A DNA stretch of 64,000 nucleotides from assembly GCA_040879165.1 (NCBI GenBank), contig JBBDKV010000003.1, positions 46,838 to 110,837 on the forward strand. The letters are read 5' to 3'. Shown piece after piece: positions 7,079 to 51,751 of this stretch. This DNA is from Patescibacteria group bacterium (GTDB lineage: Bacteria; Patescibacteriota; Microgenomatia; UBA1400; PJMF01). Both the position numbers and the translations under genes were made by a program. The notes under the pieces were generated by a model. That model was given only the letters and a program-made list of their open reading frames with translations, had not been told where the DNA came from and did not search any database. Each line of letters begins with the position of its first letter. The stretch's first letter is position 1.

Positions 7079-8296
7079 TTAATGAAAATGCCCGTGACTT
7101 TGCGCGTGTTTTTCAATTTCTGTTGCAGATTTCCTCAGAGCTACCCAGCTTGCAATAAAGGTCGCTACCGGCACTGCCAACACTAACCCTATTGAGCCAG
7201 CCAATGTCCGCACTACTTCTTCGACAATAACTTCACTGTTGAGTGTTACCCAATCTGGAGTGTTTTCATTCATAATGAACAACAAAAAAAGTGGCATATT
7301 GGCACCTGCATAGGCAAGCACTAGTGTGTTGACCAACGAAGCTACATGATCTTTGCCTACAGCTAGTGAACGTCTGTATAACTCTCCACTACTGATATTC
7401 TTTTTGGCTGCACGTAATTGAAAAACTACTGACACTTGAGAAACTGTAATATCATCAAGTACCCCGAGCGCGCCAAGCATGATGCCTCCAAGCAGCAAGC
7501 CTTGTAAATTGACAACAGCGCTTGGACCAAATTGTAAAAAGTATGCTTCCTCTGAGCCCAAACCTACCAATTGAGAAGCAGTAACAGCTAGATACGAAAT
7601 CCCCACTACCACAAATAGAACGAGCACGGTTGACATCAATGCCAAATGAGACTTGAGCGTAAGACCATGAGCTACGTAAATAGTAACAGCGCCAATCACC
7701 AAAGCACCAATTAAACTGACCCCAATAGGATTAGCGCCAGTAAGAATTTGTGGCACAACAAATTGCATCAAAATCACCACGCTCAAAATCATGCCGAACG
7801 TAGCGTACAAACCCTGCCAACCACCAACTACGACTACTACTACCAAAAAGACAAAAAACAAAAAGTAAATAGTTGGCAGACGATATATATCTGCTACAAC
7901 CACCTCTGTCTCACCATCACTCAATAATTGTTCAGCCAACACCAAGCGTCGACCTTCTTCAATTAACTGCTGTTCATTTAGTGGCTGAAACGTTGAGCCC
8001 ACGCTAACCTCAACAAGCTCTCCCGTATCTGAGCGTTGTACCCGAACTTTCTGAGTAAATAGATTGTCTTGTTCGCTGACCCGGAGTTGCTCAACGATTT
8101 CCTGAGCCCTTCCAGTAAAATAGACTGGCACTTCTACTGTCGGCTGCTGAGGTGTCGTTGGCTCTTGAGGTGACGCTTGCTCTTGACTTGTCGTTGGCTG
8201 CTGAGCTGATTCCTGAGCCGCTACTGGGGGTGCTGTCACAATTCCCACCATCAATGACGCAAGCAAGAAAATTAAACAAGCAAAATATCTCAACAT
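7079..8296 (-). CDS. YibE/F-family integral membrane protein
   Basis: 405 aa. It has a signal-like N-terminus, a Q/P-rich extracellular segment, then about 8 TM helices. The architecture matches YibE/F (PF07907). The assignment is by pattern only. Confidence 0.5.
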   Translation of the reverse strand: MLRYFACLIFLLASLMVGIVTAPPVAAQESAQQPTTSQEQASPQEPTTPQQPTVEVPVYFTGRAQEIVEQLRVSEQDNLFTQKVRVQRSDTGELVEVSVGSTFQPLNEQQLIEEGRRLVLAEQLLSDGETEVVVADIYRLPTIYFLFFVFLVVVVVVGGWQGLYATFGMILSVVILMQFVVPQILTGANPIGVSLIGALVIGAVTIYVAHGLTLKSHLALMSTVLVLFVVVGISYLAVTASQLVGLGSEEAYFLQFGPSAVVNLQGLLLGGIMLGALGVLDDITVSQVSVVFQLRAAKKNISSGELYRRSLAVGKDHVASLVNTLVLAYAGANMPLFLLFIMNENTPDWVTLNSEVIVEEVVRTLAGSIGLVLAVPVATFIASWVALRKSATEIEKHAQSHGHFH

Positions 8297-8316
8297 ACTG
8301 GTATTCTATACCACAG

Positions 8317-9762
8317 ATGAACTATTTTTTACAATTACTTCACTTCGTCCTGAAAAATAGCTTAATTGTAAGCATCGTGCTTGTGGCAGCAATTCTGAGG
8401 TTTTGGCAACTAGATAGTCAAATGATTTTGTTTCCTGATGCTGGACACGATCTCTTGGTGGCGGCACAGGCTGTTGAGGAACGATCTGTTCCACTTCTTG
8501 GAATTCCATCAAGCATACCAATCTTTAAGCAAGGTCCTATAGCTATCTGGCTGATGATGGCAACAATTTCAACTTTTGGCATAGCTAGCTATCCTATTGC
8601 TATCCTCTTCGCCCTCATTGGCTGCCTAGCGGTGATTGGGATATATGAAATCTTAACTGTCACAATGTCCAGACAGCATGGACTGATTGCTGCAGCACTA
8701 GCTGCTACTTCGCCAATTATGGTTGCCCATAGCCGGATGCCCTATCACACCACACCTATCCCCTTTATGACCATACTATTTCTTGCAGCCTGCGTTGCAC
8801 TATGGCACAAGTATCGATTTGCGCCTTTTCTTGCAGTGCTGACTTTTTGTGGGGTGTTCCAGTTTGAGTTAGCCGCTGCTCCACTAGCGCTTGTGCCAAT
8901 CTATATTTGGTTGCGCAGATATCGCCGCTTGCCAACACGAGGTGAAAGCGCTCAGGTTGTTTTGGCGTTTTTAACAGGGATGCTTCCCCAAGTCATATTT
9001 GATTTACAAAATAATTTTACGCAAATTGCCAAGTTCTTTGTCTGGGTTATGATTAAAACAAAAGATTTTTTTGTACTCGGTAGTAGCGGTAATTTGCAGT
9101 TGCATACAGCTTTTGAAAATAGCTGGCTCTATATCGGCCGAATTTTTAGCACAGATTTTCTGCTGATTTCTATAGCATTCACCGTCGTATTTGTGTTAGG
9201 CATATTCTTTGCAATACACAAAGCCAAGACTAAAATACTTGAGCCTATCTGGGAAATATCGCTACTAAGCATGCTGGTATTGTTGAGTGCGTTTATCATC
9301 CACACCGGTCCATCTGAAGCATATTTCCCACCCCTTTTTATTCTAGTGCTGATTCATATCACCTGCACTATCAAGGCTTTGCCAAAACCTGTGTATACGC
9401 TAAGCGTCCTCGCCATTGCGCTCTTGATGCTAACCAATGTGGTGAGTATCTGGCAACACCGTTTTTTCGTCAGTACCGTGCAAAAATGGACCTACGCTCC
9501 AAGTCTAGCTGAACAGCGTCAAGTTATTTCATTTATTACTCAAAAAAGCACGGGCGAGTATCAATTGAAAAGTACACAGCCCAACAAAGAAGCATTTCCC
9601 TCTGACTTTGATAACTATCGCTGGGTAGCACTAGAGGAAAAAATGCATCCACCAGGTGATTCTGGCACTGTTTTCTGGATTCAGCCCAAAAACCAAGTAA
9701 GTAGTTTTTCGCCTGCCCAGAACCGCAGAACTTTTCAGTCTCTAGTCATCTACTGGCACTAA
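8317..9762 (+). CDS. GT-C fold glycosyltransferase (ArnT/PMT-like, family 39/83)
   Basis: About 481 aa, polytopic. It is trimmed from the ORF-track start at 8152 to the first ATG (8317) that does not overlap the divergent yibE/F gene. The PMT_2-like N-terminal TM bundle supports the family call. Confidence 0.6.
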   Translation: MNYFLQLLHFVLKNSLIVSIVLVAAILRFWQLDSQMILFPDAGHDLLVAAQAVEERSVPLLGIPSSIPIFKQGPIAIWLMMATISTFGIASYPIAILFALIGCLAVIGIYEILTVTMSRQHGLIAAALAATSPIMVAHSRMPYHTTPIPFMTILFLAACVALWHKYRFAPFLAVLTFCGVFQFELAAAPLALVPIYIWLRRYRRLPTRGESAQVVLAFLTGMLPQVIFDLQNNFTQIAKFFVWVMIKTKDFFVLGSSGNLQLHTAFENSWLYIGRIFSTDFLLISIAFTVVFVLGIFFAIHKAKTKILEPIWEISLLSMLVLLSAFIIHTGPSEAYFPPLFILVLIHITCTIKALPKPVYTLSVLAIALLMLTNVVSIWQHRFFVSTVQKWTYAPSLAEQRQVISFITQKSTGEYQLKSTQPNKEAFPSDFDNYRWVALEEKMHPPGDSGTVFWIQPKNQVSSFSPAQNRRTFQSLVIYWH

Positions 9763-17632: not shown

Positions 17633-19219
17633 ATGCGCCAATTTTTTCGCTCCACTGACGCAATCATCCTTGCTGGATTGTTGTTACTTGTTACGCTACT
17701 ACGACTTCCCAACTTTTTTGAACCATATTGGTACGGAGACGAAGCCATTTACCTAACCATTGGTAACGCACTCAATTATGGCGAAATACTCTATCAAGAC
17801 ATTGTTGATCACAAAACTCCAGGCATCTACTGGTTGGCACAAGTGGGAACACAACTCAACTTTCGAATTGTATTGATGGGCTGGATGCTGGCCAGCACAA
17901 CGCTATTTTTTCTAATCTCTAAACAAGTATGTAGCAATCGTTGGTCAATCGGCTGGGCAAGCCTGTTCTTCGTCATATTCACCAGCATTCCTTTTTTTGA
18001 GGGTAATATTCCTAATGGCGAATTATTCGTTATTGGCTTCGTGCTACTTGGCACGTGGCTGCTGCTTCAAAGCACTGTTGGTCAAGCCATCAAGATGCAG
18101 AAAACAAGTACCACACATACAAAAGATTTTGTATTTCTGCTAGGCTCAGGAGCGGCGTTTGGCTTAGCCATACTTGTCAAAATACCAGCGTTATTTGATT
18201 GGCTTGGCGCAATTTCTCTACTCTATTTTATAGTGCTCAGATACGCCAGTACGCAGGGTTGGAAATCATACACAAAGCTTTGGCAATCCGTACGGCACTA
18301 TCTACTGTTAACATCTGCACAGACCTTGGCAGTTTTGCTCGTACTGGCAGCAAGTATCGGATATTTTTGGTTGATTGGCGCTGGCTCAGACTACCTAGAA
18401 TTCGGACTGCTCTATAACTTTCACTATGCAGGCAACTGGGAAGTTACACATCTCGATCCCAAACTGGCTTGGTGGTTTTCACTCCCAGGAAAGGCGACAT
18501 TTCTTGCAGTAACTGGCGTTATCTTGAGTTTTATATCGTTTCAAAAGTTATCAGTGGTTGGTCGTTGGCTCGGCATGTGGGTGGCGCTAGCTTTAATTGC
18601 TGCACTGCTTTCAAACCGTCCGTACCCTCATTATTTTCTCCAAATTATTCCTCCACTAGCGTTGCTGCTTGGACACACAATTGAGGAATGGTCCGTCAAG
18701 CGAAAAAATCGAAAAAGCAGCAGCTTATCACTTACTACCGCACTCACTGGCATACTTATTACTTTCAGCGTGCTGACCATTTGGTTGATCAACGCCTTTC
18801 CTTACCCAACAATTTCGTATTATGCTACCTGGTACAGGTTTATGACCAATCAAATCACTCCAACAGAGTATCGAGATAGTTTTAATTATCTACTTGCAGA
18901 TAATTATCGATTTAACCAAGCTGATTTGGTACAACCCGGAGAAAACTTGTTTATTTGGGGAACTAATCCAATGTTGTATGCTCAAACCCAGACCATTCCC
19001 GTTGGTCGCTTTACGGTTGCATTTCACATTCATGACTTAGGACTGTACTCCGAAACAATGCAAGCTGTAGAACGTGTCAAACCAAAAATTATCATTACGC
19101 AACACGCAGAAGACACCGAACTTCCTGGTCTTAATCAATTATTGGAAGCAGAATACGTTGCCGATGAAACGTATGATCACTTTACTCTTTGGCAGCTCCG
19201 AGATAGTATTGCGGAGTAA
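17633..19219 (+). CDS. GT-C fold glycosyltransferase (PMT/ArnT-like)
   Basis: 528 aa polytopic membrane protein. WYGDEAIY (DE motif) sits in the first loop. The C-terminal half is soluble. Confidence 0.65.
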   Translation: MRQFFRSTDAIILAGLLLLVTLLRLPNFFEPYWYGDEAIYLTIGNALNYGEILYQDIVDHKTPGIYWLAQVGTQLNFRIVLMGWMLASTTLFFLISKQVCSNRWSIGWASLFFVIFTSIPFFEGNIPNGELFVIGFVLLGTWLLLQSTVGQAIKMQKTSTTHTKDFVFLLGSGAAFGLAILVKIPALFDWLGAISLLYFIVLRYASTQGWKSYTKLWQSVRHYLLLTSAQTLAVLLVLAASIGYFWLIGAGSDYLEFGLLYNFHYAGNWEVTHLDPKLAWWFSLPGKATFLAVTGVILSFISFQKLSVVGRWLGMWVALALIAALLSNRPYPHYFLQIIPPLALLLGHTIEEWSVKRKNRKSSSLSLTTALTGILITFSVLTIWLINAFPYPTISYYATWYRFMTNQITPTEYRDSFNYLLADNYRFNQADLVQPGENLFIWGTNPMLYAQTQTIPVGRFTVAFHIHDLGLYSETMQAVERVKPKIIITQHAEDTELPGLNQLLEAEYVADETYDHFTLWQLRDSIAE

Positions 19220-19237: not shown

Positions 19238-19603
19238 ATGCCTGAAAACTTCCATCGCTATGGTCGTTGGTCAAAAGCACCAACATTAGCCAAAAAACAG
19301 TTGCTCTGGTCATTTTATCTGACTACTGCCATTACCCTAATTGCAACTGTTTTTTACTTTTTTGCCCAACCACACCTACCTTTTTTCTATACACTCCCAC
19401 TGGATAGTCAGATGCTGGCACCAAAATTATGGCTATTTCTCTTTCCCAGTATTTCACTCGGAATTACGTTGCTACACATGATTTTGCTCGGTCTATTTTA
19501 TGATTTAGACGAATTAATTCTCCGACTGTTCGCCAACGCAACAACCATCATCCAGAGCATACTACTCTTGGCACTGGTACGAATAATTGTCATTACTTGG
19601 TAA
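19238..19603 (+). CDS. Small 3-TM membrane protein of unknown function inside the glycan operon
   Basis: 121 aa. It is in phase with the operon and has hydrophobic helices. Confidence 0.4.
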   Translation: MPENFHRYGRWSKAPTLAKKQLLWSFYLTTAITLIATVFYFFAQPHLPFFYTLPLDSQMLAPKLWLFLFPSISLGITLLHMILLGLFYDLDELILRLFANATTIIQSILLLALVRIIVITW

Positions 19604-20685
19604 ACAACGCGTATATGCTTGAACTACTCAGTTTTTTACTGACAGCACTACTAGCCACATTGCTAACACCTCTGGTAATCCAGTACTATAAACGAAAAAA
19701 TTGGCTTGATGAACCAGAGAAAAAAAGACACGTTAAGGTTACCCACACCACGGCGGTACCTCGTGGTGGTGGTCTTGTTATTTTTCTCAGTATAGTGTTC
19801 AGCAGTTTATTATTGCTCAATATTGACCAATACTTACTCGCCATTTTGTTTGGCGCTGCACTTCTGGCCATCGTAGGCATGCTTGATGATATTTATGATA
19901 TTCATCCACTGATTCGTCTTACTGCCAATACTATCGCAGCGTTGATTGTCGTTGGCTCTGGCATAGGCATCGCCTACGTTAGTCATCCGTTTCAAGAGGG
20001 AGTTATTCATCTTGATCAGCCACAAATTAGCTTCTGGGCTTTCGGTGCTGAACGAACCATCTGGTTACTCTCAAGTTCATTAGCAGTCTTATTCATCATT
20101 TGGAATATGAATATTGTCAACTGGTCAAAGGGCGTAGATGGTCAAATGCCGGGATTCGTGATGATTGCTCTGATTTTTATTGGAATACTCTCAACTCGAT
20201 TTATAGGTGATCCGACAGAATTTAACACCATGATGCTGAGCTTCATTACAGCGGGTGCATTTGGAGGATTTTTACTTTGGAATTGGTATCCACAAAAAAT
20301 TATGCCAGGCTATGGTGCAGGCTCTTTGGCTGGTTACTTCTTAAGCGTATTAGCCATACTCTCAGGAGCCAAGGTAGCTACAGCCTTAATGGTGCTGGCG
20401 CTGCCCACAGCCGATGCGGTATTTACTATTATTCGCCGTATTCGTGCTGGTAAGTCTCCAATTTGGGGAGATCGCGGCCATTTCCATCACAAATTAATTG
20501 ATGTTTTTCACTGGAGCAAGCAGCAAGTGGCGGTTTTCTATTGGTCTGTCAGTTTAATTATGGGAGTGGTATCATTATACGTGAGCACCTTAGGAAAATT
20601 GGTGGCCATAGCCATTACTTTTGGACTGACCTTTGGTGTATTAATTTGGGCTAAAATAAAACAGCTGCGCCATGACTCACAATAA
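19597..20685 (+). CDS. Polyprenyl-phosphate N-acetylhexosamine-1-phosphate transferase (WecA/TagO/MraY family, GT4 membrane)
   Basis: 362 aa. It contains MLDDIYD and NMNIVNWSKGVDG with about 10 TM helices. This is the priming enzyme for lipid-linked glycans. Confidence 0.82.
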   Translation: MVNNAYMLELLSFLLTALLATLLTPLVIQYYKRKNWLDEPEKKRHVKVTHTTAVPRGGGLVIFLSIVFSSLLLLNIDQYLLAILFGAALLAIVGMLDDIYDIHPLIRLTANTIAALIVVGSGIGIAYVSHPFQEGVIHLDQPQISFWAFGAERTIWLLSSSLAVLFIIWNMNIVNWSKGVDGQMPGFVMIALIFIGILSTRFIGDPTEFNTMMLSFITAGAFGGFLLWNWYPQKIMPGYGAGSLAGYFLSVLAILSGAKVATALMVLALPTADAVFTIIRRIRAGKSPIWGDRGHFHHKLIDVFHWSKQQVAVFYWSVSLIMGVVSLYVSTLGKLVAIAITFGLTFGVLIWAKIKQLRHDSQ

Positions 20686-21637
20686 AAGCGTCTTCTACAA
20701 CCTCTTAAAAACCGCACGTCCTCGGCAATGGATTAAAAACTTGGCATTGTACGCAGCGCTGATTTTTTCAGGCATGCTGTTTTATGTACCCACTGACGCC
20801 CCCGCCTACTTTTTGACTGTAACTCTCGCCTTCATCACTTTTAATTTCATCACTTCTAGTATCTATATTTTTAACGATATTGTTGATGCAGAAGCCGATC
20901 GCAATCATCCATTCAAAAAGAAGCGACCTATTGCATCAGGCGCACTTTCAGTACGCTCAGCCAAAATTGGCGCTGGAGTTTTGCTCATCATTAGTCTTAT
21001 TTTGTCATTTTATTTAACGTTCTTCTTTCAACTGATGGCACTTGCCTACGTACTGCTTCAGATATTATATGCGAAGTTTCTCAAGCACATTCCAATTTTT
21101 GATGTAGCATCAATAGCCACCGGCTTTCTGATCAGAATTTATGCCGGGGCGCTCGTCGTTAATCTCCATATGAACGTTTGGTTTTTACTGACTGTTATCT
21201 CAGCGTCATTATTCTTAGCTGTGGGTAAACGTCAAAGTGAGCGCACACTACTTTCTGGGCAATCAGAGGAAGTAATCGGCTCAACACGCAAGATTCTCAA
21301 GCACTACACCCAGCGCTTACTCGACCAATACACGGGCATGTTTGCCACTGCAGCATGGCTTAGCTATGCCATTTATACCTTTCAAGCACAAACAGTTGTT
21401 CCAGCAGCCGAATTTACTCAAATCTACACATTTTTACCAAAAACACTGCACTCGCAAAAACTACTGATGCTAACACTACCTTTTGTAATTTTTGGCATCA
21501 TGCGCTACTTACAACTGATTTATGAAAAAAATGAAGGTGAATCCCCAGAGCGAGTGCTGCTTGGAGACAGAACGTTGCTCACCACACTTTTTATGTTTGG
21601 CAGTAGCGTTCTCTTAATTATTTACGTCATCGGTTAA
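20672..21637 (+). CDS. UbiA-family prenyltransferase, decaprenyl-phosphate phosphoribosyltransferase (DPPR synthase)-like
   Basis: 321 aa. It has NDIVDAEADRNHPFKKKRPIASG, the NDxxDxxxD...RPIASG signature of UbiA family / Rv3806c-like enzymes. Confidence 0.6.
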   Translation: MTHNKSVFYNLLKTARPRQWIKNLALYAALIFSGMLFYVPTDAPAYFLTVTLAFITFNFITSSIYIFNDIVDAEADRNHPFKKKRPIASGALSVRSAKIGAGVLLIISLILSFYLTFFFQLMALAYVLLQILYAKFLKHIPIFDVASIATGFLIRIYAGALVVNLHMNVWFLLTVISASLFLAVGKRQSERTLLSGQSEEVIGSTRKILKHYTQRLLDQYTGMFATAAWLSYAIYTFQAQTVVPAAEFTQIYTFLPKTLHSQKLLMLTLPFVIFGIMRYLQLIYEKNEGESPERVLLGDRTLLTTLFMFGSSVLLIIYVIG

Positions 21638-21660: not shown

Positions 21661-23007
21661 ATGTTGACTAGTTTATTGCATCAATACCGAGCAAGTATTC
21701 TCCTGCTCATTCTTGCGTTTGCCTTCGTAACTCGCATTCTGTTTGTTGATCAGCCAGAGGAATATTACTTTGATGAAGTCTACCACAGCGTTACTGCTCG
21801 ATTGATAGCTGAAAATGATCCCCGAGCCTTTGAATGGTGGAATACAGCGCCAGAGCAAGACACCGCTATCGATTGGCTCCACCCCCCTGTAGCTAAGTAC
21901 ATTCAAGCCAGTACAGTCCTGCTTTTTGGAGCCAATAGCTTCGGCTTTCGCTTTAGCTCAGTGCTGTTTGGCGTCGTAGTTATTCTGCTTACCTACCATG
22001 TGGCTCAACGCCTTTTTAACAATACTCGACTCAGCCTGCTGGCTGCTGCACTGGCTAGTTTTGATGGACTACTGCTCGCTCAATCAAGAATTACCATGAA
22101 CGATATTCATGTTACAGCCTTTATTCTACTCAGCACATTGTGTTTCTTGACGTATTTGCACAATCAAAACAGTAAATGGCTGCTATTGACCGGCGTGATA
22201 ACAGGCATAACCATCGCAACCAAATGGTCTGGCATTTTAATACTTCCGGCGTTTGTCGCTCTATTATTTTTTAATTGGCTCGCATCAGGCAATCAAATAC
22301 AAGTCAAAAAAATTGCTCAGGTTGTCGGTGCATTGGGCATCATTCCACTAATTGTATTTATTAGCAGCTATGCTCTTATGTTTGCGCAGGGTAAAGATCT
22401 CGCTCACTTTATAGAGTTACAAAAACAAGTTTGGTGGTATCAGACAACGTTATCTGCCACCCATCCAGCGCAATCGCGACCTTGGGAATGGGTCTTAAAT
22501 ACGAGTCCTGTTTGGTATCACGTTGATTACATCTCAGACGAGTTACGTGGCAACATTTATGCACAGGGCAATCTCCCGCTCTATTGGCTTGGAGCGATTG
22601 CTGTACTGGCCGCTAGTCTGCATGTTGCACGAAAGAAAATCACTGCTTTTACGGCTTCCCGAAATGCATCATATGTCCAGCGGTTGCAAGCAATTACTCG
22701 ATCAGTCGTCACTGAGCCAGTTGCGCCACTAGTACTGTTGTATTTTATACTTTGGGTACCGTGGCTTTTTTCTCCAAGAATTATGTTTTTCTATCACTAT
22801 GCACCAGCCGTGCCATTTATGTGCATTCTTTTGGCATGGTGGCTGCTCAGATTACAACAAAAAATCAAGCATGGTTCGTATCTTATCTGGACCGCTTTTC
22901 TTGTAATAGGTGTTTGGTTTGTAGCTTGGTACCCCTACTGGACTGGAGTTCCCACACCGATTATTTTTCACGAAAATATCTATCAATATTTTGATGTGTG
23001 GAAATAG
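21661..23007 (+). CDS. Protein O-mannosyltransferase-like GT39 (PMT family, GT-C)
   Basis: 448 aa. It has FDEVYH in loop 1, an R-rich loop and a polytopic topology. Confidence 0.7.
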   Translation: MLTSLLHQYRASILLLILAFAFVTRILFVDQPEEYYFDEVYHSVTARLIAENDPRAFEWWNTAPEQDTAIDWLHPPVAKYIQASTVLLFGANSFGFRFSSVLFGVVVILLTYHVAQRLFNNTRLSLLAAALASFDGLLLAQSRITMNDIHVTAFILLSTLCFLTYLHNQNSKWLLLTGVITGITIATKWSGILILPAFVALLFFNWLASGNQIQVKKIAQVVGALGIIPLIVFISSYALMFAQGKDLAHFIELQKQVWWYQTTLSATHPAQSRPWEWVLNTSPVWYHVDYISDELRGNIYAQGNLPLYWLGAIAVLAASLHVARKKITAFTASRNASYVQRLQAITRSVVTEPVAPLVLLYFILWVPWLFSPRIMFFYHYAPAVPFMCILLAWWLLRLQQKIKHGSYLIWTAFLVIGVWFVAWYPYWTGVPTPIIFHENIYQYFDVWK

Positions 23008-45470: not shown

Positions 45471-45680
45471 ATGAAAAGTATTGCAATAAGCATCATTCTG
45501 GCCACTATCGTTTTTGGTGGTATTACGGGATATTGGGTGTATGCAACTCAAGCTCAGCAGGTACTCTTGACCAAACATGCAGCAGTTCAGGGCTGTATTA
45601 CTGTACTTCCAGAAGTCAATCCTGGCTGGTACAACAAGTGCATGGCAGAAAAAGGATATCAAACAAACTTAACGTACTAA
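45471..45680 (+). CDS. Small membrane/secreted protein
   Basis: 69 aa. An N-terminal TM helix and two Cys; an AAGGAA SD. Confidence 0.4.
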   Translation: MKSIAISIILATIVFGGITGYWVYATQAQQVLLTKHAAVQGCITVLPEVNPGWYNKCMAEKGYQTNLTY

Positions 45681-45713
45681 TCCGTATAAAATTAAAAAGC
45701 GGCTTAGATCTGT

Positions 45714-46691
45714 ATGCCTAATAATCAAGCTACCCAACCATTTGTCAGCGTCATCATGCCGGTTTATAACGCAGCGGCCTATTTACCACTGGCTATCGAG
45801 AGTATTCTTAAGCAGTCATATACCAACTGGGAGCTGATCATAGTTGATGATGCATCTACCGATGGCTCCTGGCAGATCATTCAGCACTATGTCAGAACTT
45901 CAACAGGTAAGATAACCGCTTACCAATTAGATAAAAATCACAATGCCGGCGGAGATACTGCGGCCAATATCGCCTACCAACATGCGAGCGGCCAGTACGT
46001 CGCCCGTATGGATGCGGATGACATTTCTCATCCAAAACGACTCCAACACCAAGTGAAGTTTCTGCAACAAAACCCACACGTTACCATACTCGGTACCAAT
46101 GCGGTGGTGATTGATAGTTCAGGCAAAAAAATGGGCAATAAAACCATGCCAGCTGAGCACAACGCGATCACGCAGGAATATTTTAGATATCACCCAATCA
46201 TCAATCCAACAGTGATGATTAATCGCTCACTCTTTCCTAATAAATCACAACTCTATCAACTCAAGAATAGCAGCAACAATGACTACTACACGTTCTTCAG
46301 ATTACTCTGTGACGGACATCAATTTGCAAATGTTCAAGAACCGCTACTGTCATACCGGATTCATGGACAAAATGATTCACTCGCCAATGTGAAGCGAAGT
46401 TTTAAGAATACCCTGTTAACACGCATCGAGATGGTGAAAAAGCATGGATATCGCCCATCACTTAAAAACTGGCTCATTACAGCAGCACAATTATCAATTA
46501 TTCTGATACTACCTGAAAAAGTGCTGTTCGAACTCTATCTGCACTTGCGTGGAATTAAAAAATTGAAGGCTCCTGCATTCACCAGCGTTACTGCTAGTTA
46601 TATAGCCAGTGTGCGGGCTGAACTACTTCGCTCTAGTATCAACTGGCGCCACAAAATTGCCAAAAAAGTACTCTATAACACACACTCATAA
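45714..46691 (+). CDS. GT2 glycosyltransferase (Ppm1/CsbB/GtrB-like polyprenyl-phosphate sugar synthase candidate)
   Basis: 325 aa. It has VSVIMPVYNAAAYL...IIVDDASTDGS, and a DAD motif (RMDADDISHP). Confidence 0.8.
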   Translation: MPNNQATQPFVSVIMPVYNAAAYLPLAIESILKQSYTNWELIIVDDASTDGSWQIIQHYVRTSTGKITAYQLDKNHNAGGDTAANIAYQHASGQYVARMDADDISHPKRLQHQVKFLQQNPHVTILGTNAVVIDSSGKKMGNKTMPAEHNAITQEYFRYHPIINPTVMINRSLFPNKSQLYQLKNSSNNDYYTFFRLLCDGHQFANVQEPLLSYRIHGQNDSLANVKRSFKNTLLTRIEMVKKHGYRPSLKNWLITAAQLSIILILPEKVLFELYLHLRGIKKLKAPAFTSVTASYIASVRAELLRSSINWRHKIAKKVLYNTHS

Positions 46692-49600
46692 TGCTACAGT
46701 TATGGAACACTCGCCTAAGAAATTTTTTCAAAACCCACATCGTCACACTAATACTACTGGGAGTTGTGCTCTCAATAGGCGCAGCTAGTTTTCAATCAGG
46801 AACATTCTTGCTTGGTTGGGATGTGACTGCTCCAGAGTTGGCAATTTCGCTGAATCTCGAACGCAGCATTTTTGGTGTCTGGCAAACCTATCGTGGACTA
46901 GGCACGCTCGACGGCATGGCACATGTTGCCAATGTAATTCACGTCCTCCTGATGGCTTTCTGGAAATTACTCGTGGGAATCGAGGCTGCTCGCCCACTCT
47001 GGTTGCTAATACTGTATGGACTTGGCATGCTTGGCTCAGCTGCTCTAACCAGACAAATCTTTGCAAATATTGCTAAAAAAACTGATACAAAAATCGAGAT
47101 GGCAGCAAGCTTAATCAGCGGATTGGCATACGGGTTGAACTTTTACGTGCTGCAAATGTTTTATGTTCCTCTGGAAGTGTTTGCCTATCAATTTGCTGCC
47201 TTACCATGGCTTTTGTGGTCAGCAGAACACTACTTAACTAACAGATCACACAAAGCACTTGGGGTTTTTGGATTAATTACCTTGTTGGGATTAGGTCAGG
47301 CTCATGTTCCCACTGTATTCATCAGCTCCGCCCTGCTATTTGGCTGCATGCTGCTCTGGAGACTGAGTGTAAATTGGAAAAAAAACCTACTCTCAGTTGT
47401 ATTATTAGGATTAGTATTTACCGGTATCAATGCATCGTGGATGTTGCCATACACCTACAGCGCCATACAAAAGCCAGACGTTATTGCAGGATCACACATC
47501 AACCAACTCTCTACACCAGAGATTTCAGCCAGAAATAAGTCGTGGGGCACTGTGCGTGGCGTCTCAACTATGGGGAGTTTTAACCTCGATTACTTGAGTT
47601 GGTCAGAAACACCAAAAAATAACATCTATATGATGGGTGACTGGCGAGAGCACTATTTTTCATTTACGTATCAATCAGTGACTTTTCTGCTGTTTGGGAT
47701 AGCTTTTTTCGGAGTACTTACTATGCTTATCAGGAGAAAGTGGCGCACAACGCAGAGCGTATGGATTCCAGTGACGTTCATACTCTTTTTTGCTTTATTA
47801 GCCAATAACTCAGCGTTGTTTGGCTGGGTGACTCAAGTTCTTACCGCTGGAGTGCCTTTTTTTGGAGAAGTCTTTCGCTTCACTTTTACCAAGTTCTCTC
47901 AGCCGTACGCACTGCTTTTGAGCGTGTTGCTCGGAATCGGAGTAGCCCAAGCTGCCCTACTTCTGCATGCACGCGGGCATCAGAAACGACAATGGCTACT
48001 AGTAATCTTCACGCTCATCTTAATTTTCACACACTCACTACCAATCTGGAAAAATGGTATATTTTACAAAGAACTCTGGGTGAGTGTTCCTCAAGAATAT
48101 TTTGGACTCACTGAGTACTTAAACACCAACACTTCAAGTACTGAAAAGGTAGCCATTCTACCAAGCCCAACTCTCTATGGCTGGACGAGCAACTCGTGGG
48201 GGCATAGAGGATCAGGATTTTTGTGGCAGATGGTGCGACCAGCAATGATGGATAGAGCTTTTGACGCATGGAGTACAGAAAACGAAACATACTATCAGCA
48301 GCTTAATACAGCCCTTAGCTCGCAGGACGAAACAGCTTTTTTTGCTGTCTTAAATCAATATAACATCGACTATATTTTGTATGATAGCAGTATTGTTGCT
48401 GGAACAAGTGAGCTTCAAACTGCTGAAAATCAAGTCATGAAAAACTGGTTGCTTGATCAATCAGAAGTGGTATTTATGGATGGCTACCTAACACTCTATC
48501 AACTAAATTCTTCTACTACGCATTCTCCGCTTCTCAGTACTGAAAATACTCCTATCCTCAGCGGCTCAACCCTACGCACACAACGGAACACGCTTCCTAC
48601 TCCGTATCTTGAGGCGAAAACTGGCTCTCAATTAGTTCAGAAAACACACCCATTTTTATGGGTAACACAACAAAAAATTGCCGACGAACGATTTCAATAT
48701 CGGCAAGAGGTACTCAGCTTGTCGCTGCCTTCCGTAGAGACTCCGACCACACTAACACTACCAAAACCAAATCAGGGAGCGCAACTCAACCTCCCCTTTA
48801 TGGTAATGGCAGATGACGAGAGGTTGATCTTTAACGGACTACCTATGGGTATCGTGACATCTGGAACAGAGGTAGAAGCGCTTGAAAACCCAATGTCATT
48901 TTCTCATTCAACCACAGCAATGAATGAGAATTCTACACTCCTAATTGAGGTGAATGAACAATTAATTGCGATTAATACCAATGAACAACCCACAGTCTGG
49001 CTGACGAAACTCAAGATGGATCAACCTATCAAGATTAGGGTGATTCAACATGATCAAATCGAAACTTTGACAGATGCCATCCTAAATGCAGAATCAAACT
49101 CTGAGACACGTATTCCAGCCAGTATCTGGGATGAATTTCCTGAGACAGAAATACCTATCAATCCGGGCAGAGAATCAGTTCAATTACATCTCTCTACCCA
49201 CGCAATTCAGATTTCCTTAGATGATGGTGCGCCAGTAGAAAACTGCGACTCTCTTGGGCGTGGATTCGTAACCGAAAGCATCGGGCGGGATGGTGTAGAA
49301 ATACGGTCACGGGGATTTGCGAATGCCTGTAAAGGCTTTCCATTACTTCCAGCGAGCTCTCATGAAAGTTTTTTCCTAAAGGCATCAGGCTCAAGTGACG
49401 CAGAAAGTGGACTACTTTTTGGGGTAGATCACTGGTCAACACCAAGATTGGCAACATATCAGATGCTCAATCCTGATGAAAATACAATTGTGATGTCAGT
49501 TCCATCTGCACCGCATCTTGCAAAGCAAGGTTCTTCACTGATCGTTGAAAATCGATCCTTCTCTGAAAAATTTGCTACTGCACAAATCCAAAGTATCGAA

Positions 49601-50023
49601 GTGTTTATGCCAAGCTACTCAATTGAATACCTACAAGATATTTTTATTCATCCAGAAAATGAACAGGTTAATACTAGTAGTGATGCTGCAATCCACACAG
49701 CTTCTGCAACTTTTCTCACACCTACTCAAATAAAAGTCAAACCAAGCAATAATTCAAGTCAGGCTAATACTTCTGCATTAGTTCTTTTACAAGCATATGA
49801 CCCCGGCTGGATTGCCTTTCCTTCAAACAAGCCATGGCAACGTCTTGAGCATGCTAAGTACAACGGGTGGGCGAATGCATGGCTGATTGATTCAGACAAT
49901 GAGGAGTTGACTATTTTATATCTGCCACAGTTACTAACCTATGCTGGATATACATTATTACTCACCACTCTGTTTTTTCTATTTAAGAGCTGGAGGCGAG
50001 AATCTAGACACTTCCTTGCTTAA
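46691..50023 (+). CDS. Giant polytopic membrane protein, YfhO/GT-C-like glycosyltransferase candidate
   Basis: 1110 aa. About 14 TM helices sit in the first ~460 aa. A large extracytoplasmic domain follows, then a C-terminal TM. The TAATG overlap with the upstream GT2 indicates translational coupling. Confidence 0.4.
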   Translation: MLQLWNTRLRNFFKTHIVTLILLGVVLSIGAASFQSGTFLLGWDVTAPELAISLNLERSIFGVWQTYRGLGTLDGMAHVANVIHVLLMAFWKLLVGIEAARPLWLLILYGLGMLGSAALTRQIFANIAKKTDTKIEMAASLISGLAYGLNFYVLQMFYVPLEVFAYQFAALPWLLWSAEHYLTNRSHKALGVFGLITLLGLGQAHVPTVFISSALLFGCMLLWRLSVNWKKNLLSVVLLGLVFTGINASWMLPYTYSAIQKPDVIAGSHINQLSTPEISARNKSWGTVRGVSTMGSFNLDYLSWSETPKNNIYMMGDWREHYFSFTYQSVTFLLFGIAFFGVLTMLIRRKWRTTQSVWIPVTFILFFALLANNSALFGWVTQVLTAGVPFFGEVFRFTFTKFSQPYALLLSVLLGIGVAQAALLLHARGHQKRQWLLVIFTLILIFTHSLPIWKNGIFYKELWVSVPQEYFGLTEYLNTNTSSTEKVAILPSPTLYGWTSNSWGHRGSGFLWQMVRPAMMDRAFDAWSTENETYYQQLNTALSSQDETAFFAVLNQYNIDYILYDSSIVAGTSELQTAENQVMKNWLLDQSEVVFMDGYLTLYQLNSSTTHSPLLSTENTPILSGSTLRTQRNTLPTPYLEAKTGSQLVQKTHPFLWVTQQKIADERFQYRQEVLSLSLPSVETPTTLTLPKPNQGAQLNLPFMVMADDERLIFNGLPMGIVTSGTEVEALENPMSFSHSTTAMNENSTLLIEVNEQLIAINTNEQPTVWLTKLKMDQPIKIRVIQHDQIETLTDAILNAESNSETRIPASIWDEFPETEIPINPGRESVQLHLSTHAIQISLDDGAPVENCDSLGRGFVTESIGRDGVEIRSRGFANACKGFPLLPASSHESFFLKASGSSDAESGLLFGVDHWSTPRLATYQMLNPDENTIVMSVPSAPHLAKQGSSLIVENRSFSEKFATAQIQSIEVFMPSYSIEYLQDIFIHPENEQVNTSSDAAIHTASATFLTPTQIKVKPSNNSSQANTSALVLLQAYDPGWIAFPSNKPWQRLEHAKYNGWANAWLIDSDNEELTILYLPQLLTYAGYTLLLTTLFFLFKSWRRESRHFLA

Positions 50024-50082
50024 TTTTTTACATTCAGTAACTTCCTACACTTCCCTAAAGACTCCTGCGCTAGACTTAGCGC

Positions 50083-51393
50083 ATGACCCAAAAACGCATC
50101 CTCCTCACGCTCCTGTTTGTACTCCTCTTCACGCTCCTGCTCGCACTAATCGCTCAGAGTGCTCATCTTGCTTCAGCTGCTTCTCCCGAAATCATCATCT
50201 CCGAACTCTACCCAGCCCCACCTGCGGGCAGCGGCGAGCCAGAGTGGATCGAGCTTGCCAATGTCAGTGAACAGGATATCGACATCTCTGGCTGGGAAGT
50301 ATGGGATCAGTTGGCGTCACCTGGGCAGCTAAACACATTTGAGCCCGGAACGATGGTGCCTGCCAACTCTTTTTTACTCATTGAACTGACCGTCCACAAA
50401 CTCAACAACACCGGTGACGGCGTGGTGCTGATCCACTCCGATGGTACCATCGTAGACGACTTCTGGTACTCAGGCACTACTGCTAGTAAATCATGGCAGC
50501 GCCAGTCGGCAGACACGACGCAACGTATCCTAACCAATCCTACCCCTAGCGCAGAACACCCAGAATACCCCGTTCTCTCAGCTTCGACAACACAACCATC
50601 TCCATCTCCCCAGCCTTCTCCAACACCAACTCCCTCGCCAGCCTCAACTCCCCAGCCTACCTCAACACCCACGCCCCAACCTACACTCGACCCAACCACA
50701 ATCACCCAACACGTCACCTTTACTGAGTTTGCTGCCTGCCCATCAGGGGGATCAGAGTGGATTGAGCTCTACAATACCAGTCCACAGCTGACGATCACTG
50801 ACTGGGTTGTTCGTGATGCTGGCGGCAATCAGCGCACAATCAGTGGCGAATTACCACCGTTTACTTTTACTCGGTTTTCCTGGGGTGGCTCGTTACTCAA
50901 TAATTCGGGAGATGAATTCTCCATTTTTACAGACACTGACGCGCTGATTGGATCAGCAAGCTATGATTCTTGCACCCTGGGGCTGAGTCATATTTGGGAC
51001 GGCACCAACTGGATTCAGCTTGCACTCGATCTGACTACGAACCCAACACCGACGCCGACGCCATCACCAAGCCCAACTACCCAGCCAGCTCCAACCACCG
51101 AACCAGATTCAACCAAAAATGAAACGGAGCAAGCAGGCTCTGCGACTGAGGCTAATGCCGCGATCCAGGGCGCAACTACTACCACAACTGAGCCGTACCC
51201 TCACACACTGCCCACCTACTCACCACAGCAGCTGCACACAGGTGCCACGATTACCGATTCGGTGATCGAGTTTGAACAATCAGAGCTTCCCAAGTTACCG
51301 ACGCTGAGTGTTATAATGGGTGGATTGCTCCAGCTCTTGCCTGGAGCTGTTAGCTTATATGTCAAACGCACTCAGTCCAGCGATATATCTTAA
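50083..51393 (+). CDS. Surface protein with two Lamin-tail domains separated by Pro/Thr/Ser-rich linkers, and a C-terminal hydrophobic anchor
   Basis: LTD signatures IISELYPAPPAGSGEPEWIELANVSEQDIDISGWEVWD and VTFTEFAACPSGGSEWIELYNTSP...DWVVRD. Linkers PSPSPQPSPTPTPSP and NPTPTPTPSPSPTTQPAPTT. C-terminus ELPKLPTLSVIMGGLLQLLPGAVSLYVKRTQS. Confidence 0.7.
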   Translation: MTQKRILLTLLFVLLFTLLLALIAQSAHLASAASPEIIISELYPAPPAGSGEPEWIELANVSEQDIDISGWEVWDQLASPGQLNTFEPGTMVPANSFLLIELTVHKLNNTGDGVVLIHSDGTIVDDFWYSGTTASKSWQRQSADTTQRILTNPTPSAEHPEYPVLSASTTQPSPSPQPSPTPTPSPASTPQPTSTPTPQPTLDPTTITQHVTFTEFAACPSGGSEWIELYNTSPQLTITDWVVRDAGGNQRTISGELPPFTFTRFSWGGSLLNNSGDEFSIFTDTDALIGSASYDSCTLGLSHIWDGTNWIQLALDLTTNPTPTPTPSPSPTTQPAPTTEPDSTKNETEQAGSATEANAAIQGATTTTTEPYPHTLPTYSPQQLHTGATITDSVIEFEQSELPKLPTLSVIMGGLLQLLPGAVSLYVKRTQSSDIS

Positions 51394-51751
51394 AGCCTAC
51401 CTTCCAGTAGCGGCCTGGGCCTTAACAATTTTCATACTTTCTTCTCAAGGATCTCTTCCTGGATTCTCTGTCTCAGCTGCGGACTTTGTCTTCAAAAAAT
51501 CTGCACATATGTTTGTCTATGCAGTGCTCTATTATCTTTTTTGGCGGGCAGTCCAAAAAACCCATCCTACACCAACCACTTCTCAGACTTTCATCCACTG
51601 GGCACTCCCACTTGGACTGACGCTACTGTACGCAGCGTCGGACGAATTGCATCAAACATTTGTGCCGTACCGCTACGGCACAATCCGTGACGTTGGGTAC
51701 GATATGTTAGGAGCCTGCATTGTATTTTTGCGACAATATCGGTATATTTAG
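51359..51751 (+). CDS. VanZ-like family membrane protein
   Basis: It has the SDELHQTFVPYRYGTIRDVGYDMLG motif. The start is trimmed to the Met at 51359. Confidence 0.65.
   Translation: MSNALSPAIYLKAYLPVAAWALTIFILSSQGSLPGFSVSAADFVFKKSAHMFVYAVLYYLFWRAVQKTHPTPTTSQTFIHWALPLGLTLLYAASDELHQTFVPYRYGTIRDVGYDMLGACIVFLRQYRYI

Follow-up and report, generated by a model that had tools for sequence, protein, structure and literature searches.

Between positions 45471 and 51751 of the window, the 64,000-nucleotide stretch of a Patescibacteria contig analysed here, lies a run of genes that had been predicted to form a dedicated module for the O-glycosylation of a surface protein. All open reading frames of that prediction were found again in the window at the same coordinates; they encode a small membrane protein, a GT2 glycosyltransferase, a very large polytopic protein of the GT-C type, a secreted protein with lamin-tail domains (LTD) and a VanZ-family protein (Table 1). 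The interval consists of two functionally separate units, the glycosyltransferase (GT) module and the LTD-VanZ unit. Promoter and terminator scans of the region gave signals at background level only.

Table 1. Coordinates of the genes and protein domains discussed in the text (positions in the window).
Feature	Position	Strand	Remarks
WecA-type enzyme	19597-20685		window gene, proposed lipid-carrier primer
Lipoprotein, 428 aa	44011-45297	+	outside the predicted interval; lipobox LSAC, Pro/Thr-containing linker, domain of ~300 aa
Small membrane protein, 69 aa	45471-45680	+	from translation: N-terminal TM helix, extracytoplasmic tail with Cys pair
GT2 (GT-A fold), 325 aa	45714-46691	+	Pfam Glycos_transf_2 PF00535, E 3e-34
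Polytopic GT-C protein, 1110 aa, whole gene	46691-50023	+	AF2 model, Foldseek, family alignment
GT-C transmembrane catalytic domain, aa 1-455	46691-48055	+	codon of invariant Asp44 at 46820-46822
GT-C extracytoplasmic alpha/beta domain, aa 468-605	48092-48505	+	conserved W498, W512, FD525xW527S, D565
GT-C CBM-like beta-sandwich domains, aa 614-1077	48530-49921	+	last domain with motif YDxGWxA...VNxWANxW
GT-C C-terminal TM helix (aa 1078-1109), basic cytoplasmic tail, stop codon	49922-50023	+	AF2 model and sequence
LTD protein, secreted, C-terminally anchored	50083-51393	+	two lamin-tail domains, two P/T/S linkers
VanZ-family membrane protein, 130 aa from ATG	51359-51751	+	Pfam E 8e-12; NCBIfam vanZ_1 E 7e-18

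The stop codon of the GT2 gene and the start codon of the GT-C gene share a single nucleotide in the sequence TAATG (46689-46693), as originally predicted, and the identical overlap is present in two other loci (L001 and L006). Of 88 independent loci, 60 encode an orthologous GT2 (47-64% identical) directly upstream of the GT-C and a further seven encode it at a distance of 1-2 kb on that side, so that the pairing is conserved in 67 of the 85 loci that could be assessed, an adjacency far beyond chance. The GT-C family is large (about 1,800 representatives when clustered at 50% identity) and restricted to Patescibacteria, and a literature search returned no paper describing it in CPR; the GT2/GT-C pair is found in 301 GTDB species. 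Variant cassettes also exist, in which a GT-B enzyme takes the coupled position next to the same GT-C family and a GtrB-like GT2 is encoded separately; this suggests that an enzyme other than the coupled Leloir enzyme makes the donor. A GtrA-type flippase was not found in the cassette.

By sequence, the 1110-aa protein has no match in Pfam, NCBIfam or the PDB. Its AF2 model (pLDDT 86.3, pTM 0.86), searched with Foldseek, shows a GT-C fold in the polytopic membrane domain, and AftD is the closest match among solved structures, with an E-value of 1.9e-16 over the full length; as in AftD, several CBM-type beta-sandwich domains lie outside the membrane. Across 86 sequences of the family, no change occurs at G42, D44, E162, R396 or K401, and conservation is at least 90% at W43, P48 and E49. 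The region of D44 sits just past the first transmembrane helix (residues 2-33 of the model), so that the first outer loop carries an acidic residue, and the basic N-terminus suggests that this loop faces outward. GT-C enzymes usually have a catalytic Asp that follows TM1 (PMC11127046), and AftD requires D41, E251, K361 and D474 (10.1101/2019.12.22.885152). The original prediction had named the GT-C fold and a conserved acidic loop residue as its own test, and both are present.

A first profile of the family (A1) matches AftD chains with an E-value of 4e-4, and four of 29 relatives match Pfam GT-C_AftD (PF11847) weakly, at best with an E-value of 6.6e-5; the window protein itself has no PF11847 match in Pfam, and as the AftD match is gone with the larger A3 profile of 86 sequences, the sequence relation to AftD is marginal. 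The protein had been called YfhO-like, which describes its architecture well and its family wrongly. None of the 29 family members matches Pfam YfhO (PF09586) at E<=1, and hhalign against a partial YfhO gives a probability of 10.6%, aligned at the C-terminal motif only; on these grounds membership of the YfhO family was rejected. The motif of the last beta-sandwich domain (Table 1) is common to AftD, and weakly to YfhO, and no WWDYG-type motif is seen among the conserved columns of the 86-sequence alignment.

The GT2 carries the motifs DD45-46 and DADD100-103, with D46, D100, D102 and D103 invariant in 47 sequences, and the likewise invariant Asp190 is the probable catalytic base. Its predicted structure (pLDDT 93) ends in a hydrophobic helix-break-helix (residues 250-278, in which P267 is almost invariant), with an amphipathic helix (226-244) before it; inside the hydrophobic hairpin, the polar residues Q259 and Y275 are invariant. 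In GT2s of the GtrB/CsbB/ArnC/DPMS/PpgS type, the C-terminal anchor typically consists of two transmembrane helices after interface helices. The original prediction placed the enzyme in the CsbB/GtrB type, an assignment that did not survive comparison of the catalytic domain. In NCBIfam the best matches are EpsE (E 4e-42) and TuaG (4e-36), which span residues 6-234, whereas ArnC (4e-11), PgfS (3e-6) and PpgS (9e-4) cover only approximately residues 11-130; the whole catalytic domain is EpsE/TuaG/K4CP-like, and ArnC-like only in its N-terminal half. Among PDB sequences, K4CP comes first (2e-20), ArnC scores 3e-7 and DPMS 3e-4, and GtrB (5EKP) is missing from the matches at E<=1e-3, and every one of the top 50 Foldseek matches of the model is a glycan-acceptor GT2. 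That this test is able to discriminate between the subtypes follows from a positive control, the 265-aa GT2 of the variant cassettes (L044), which retrieves GtrB, ArnC and DPMS first. With its catalytic domain of the EpsE/TuaG/K4CP kind, it is therefore slightly more likely that the GT2 builds or extends a lipid-linked glycan than that it charges polyprenyl phosphate as GtrB and CsbB do.

Upstream of the GT pair, the 428-aa lipoprotein is the accessory gene that most often adjoins it. Of the 88 loci, 19 have a homologue of it upstream of the GT2, and nine others have a member of a second lipoprotein family there; a homologue search with the lipoprotein gave 2 matches only, probably as low-complexity words swamped the search. 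It matches the NCBIfam lipoprotein signal and no Pfam domain. The 69-aa protein has equally placed counterparts of 67-75% identity in L001 and L010, and is found in close relatives only. Pfam searches with this protein and with nine upstream-neighbour proteins, from both lipoprotein families, brought up neither an informative domain nor an LCP ligase.

Downstream, the LTD protein has two LTD stretches (Pfam E 1.5e-21), a signal peptide, a C-terminal transmembrane helix, and P/T/S linkers at residues 162-209 (nt 50566-50709) and 313-346 (nt 51019-51120). VanZ likely starts at ATG 51359 and not at GTG 51320, which gives an overlap of 35 nt with the LTD gene, and the same overlap is seen in L010 and L016. 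Conservation of all five genes, and with it the proposed substrate link to LTD and VanZ, is not borne out by the other genomes. An LTD gene follows the GT-C in only four of 88 loci (L008, L010, L014 and L016), all with wider synteny to the window, and VanZ in three of 88; in L016 a toxin-antitoxin pair sits between GT-C and LTD, and in L001, with a GT-C 50% identical to that of the window, no LTD follows. Conversely, 9 of the 14 LTD-VanZ-HU loci assessable upstream (8 of 13 when L132 and L134 are taken as one contig) have no GT pair, and a GT-C is found upstream of LTD-VanZ in five of 14 (four of 13 distinct contigs, L132 and L134 being duplicates). LTD-VanZ-HU is a conserved block of its own, with the backbone RF-FtsE-FtsX-M23-LTD-VanZ-HU, which in L113, L140 and L147 is present without the GT pair. 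In the lineage of the window the GT module interrupts this backbone after M23 and before LTD, and the juxtaposition is positional, not functional; an operon of five genes, or of a dedicated enzyme and its substrate, was rejected on these counts.

The reading that I favour, with a probability of roughly 0.55, is that the interval holds an envelope-glycopolymer module next to a separate LTD-VanZ unit that runs on into HU, rather than a dedicated system for LTD O-glycosylation. A conserved envelope glycan module of the Microgenomates (Patescibacteria) would consist of the small transmembrane protein and the two glycosyltransferases, often with a secreted lipoprotein before them. The GT2 would be a GT-A enzyme on the cytoplasmic side, anchored in the membrane through its C-terminal hydrophobic hairpin, and its substrate at the inner face would be linked to polyprenyl. 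The 1110-aa protein, a GT-C of AftD/YfhO architecture with its putative active site around Asp44 on the outside, would move a sugar from a polyprenyl-phosphate-linked donor to a glycan acceptor held by the CBM-like beta-sandwich domains, which could be a wall polysaccharide, a teichoic-acid-like polymer or a lipoglycan.

Alternatively, the pair may decorate a wall polymer in the manner of CsbB-YfhO or GtrB-GtrC, the GT2 making a polyprenyl-P-sugar and the GT-C placing single sugars on an acceptor that is a polysaccharide or resembles teichoic acid. A GT2 translationally coupled this tightly to a GT-C is a classic sign of a donor-synthase/transferase pair, and the start/stop overlap, like the near-universal adjacency of the two genes, argues for a GtrB-like role of the GT2 against the sequence evidence. 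The membrane anchoring of the GT2, with its invariant Q259 and Y275, fits as well, and known GT-A/GT-C pairs are likewise arranged (PMC8035078). However, in its acceptor half the GT2 matches those GT2s that act on glycan acceptors and does not align with GtrB, ArnC or DPMS, and elsewhere the same GT-C family is coupled to a GT-B with a true GtrB-like GT2 alongside, which makes this alternative doubtful.

A role in protein glycosylation could take two forms. In the general one, a lipid-linked glycan assembled by the GT2 would be the donor, and the GT-C would act like an OST or PMT on several proteins that are secreted and have Pro/Thr-rich linkers, among them the lipoprotein, the LTD protein and DUF11/CLIPPER proteins. 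Secreted Pro/Thr-containing lipoproteins or DUF11/CLIPPER surface proteins do recur beside the GT cassette, so that protein substrates could exist, and this counts against a glycan acceptor. I nevertheless consider this form unlikely, as the conserved columns contain no WWDYG-type motif, the surface proteins beside the cassette come from different families, and the AftD/YfhO-like, CBM-like extra domains and C-terminal module point to a glycan acceptor; the characterised relatives that the cited papers name have wall polymers as their targets, arabinan for AftD (10.1101/2019.12.22.885152) and teichoic acids for YfhO (PMC8035078). The specific form is the original prediction, in which the GT-C glycosylates Ser/Thr of the LTD linkers from a polyprenyl-P-sugar made by the GT2, with VanZ as an accessory. 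The LTD protein is indeed secreted and has two dense linkers of this kind, and its gene lies 60 nt downstream of the GT-C on the same strand, as it also lies 3' of the GT-C in four other loci. Against this stand the synteny of those few loci with the window, the locus L001 without LTD, the intervening toxin-antitoxin pair in L016, the nine LTD-VanZ-HU blocks without a GT pair and the subtype of the GT2. In addition, the PMT family is known to glycosylate such linkers in Actinobacteria, and the window already has a genuine PMT-family enzyme (21661-23007). Taken with this evidence, the specific form appears very improbable.

This PMT-family protein is one of three further PMT-like genes that had been claimed for the window, and the only clear one; that at 8152-9762 has just a weak PMT_2 match, and that at 17633-19219 encodes a 10-TM protein with no family match. 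A 121-aa open reading frame with four transmembrane helices (19238-19603) likewise matches no family, and no gene for a GtrA-type flippase was found. The window also encodes a homologue of decaprenyl-phosphate phosphoribosyltransferase (20672-21637; 215.9 bits, cut-off 207), a lead towards decaprenyl-P-arabinofuranose, the donor of the AftD family, and tblastn found such a gene near one other GT-C locus only (L056). One could imagine an arabinogalactan-like logic, in which the WecA-type enzyme primes the carrier, the EpsE-like GT2 builds the lipid-linked glycan and the AftD-like GT-C extends or decorates it with pentofuranose outside the membrane, from a donor supplied by this homologue. I regard this as improbable; if true, Patescibacteria would possess a wall polymer of pentofuranose in the mycobacterial style.

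Most Patescibacteria are uncultured, and the GT2/GT-C pair is among the more widely conserved envelope cassettes of Microgenomates, with a GT-C family that has no Pfam model and is annotated as 'hypothetical'. Its assignment to the AftD/YfhO type, with modules for glycan binding, offers a specific starting point for work on a surface polymer that may mediate host attachment, and splitting the GT pair from LTD-VanZ stops a false enzyme-substrate annotation from spreading.

When the envelope-glycopolymer module is compared with known systems, actinobacterial O-mannosylation (Ppm1 with PMT/GT39) is distant, as the 1110-aa protein is without PMT domains and the cassette without a Ppm1/DPM1-like GT2. 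The oligosaccharyltransferases STT3, AglB and PglB differ by their WWDYG-type motif, whereas the extra domains of the window family are CBM-like and AftD-like. AftD itself (PF11847; PDB 6W98/6WBX) is approximately 10-12% identical to the window protein, which is some 300 residues shorter; AftD has 16 transmembrane helices and, at its C-terminus, a four-helix bundle to which acyl carrier protein binds (10.1101/2019.12.22.885152), where the window protein has one C-terminal helix (1078-1109). The window GT-C is patescibacterial and coupled to a GT2, whereas AftD is actinobacterial and not so coupled. From CsbB-YfhO, GtlA-GtlB and GtrB-GtrC the module differs in its EpsE/TuaG-like GT2, in place of the CsbB/GtrB-type partner that is a trait of the YfhO family, in the absence of Pfam YfhO matches and in the lack of a GtrA-type flippase in the cassette. 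It shares with them the adjacent GT-A and GT-C genes, and YfhO, like the 1110-aa protein, is a large GT-C with the weak common C-terminal motif detected by hhalign, which may carry extracellular carbohydrate-binding domains (PMC8035078).

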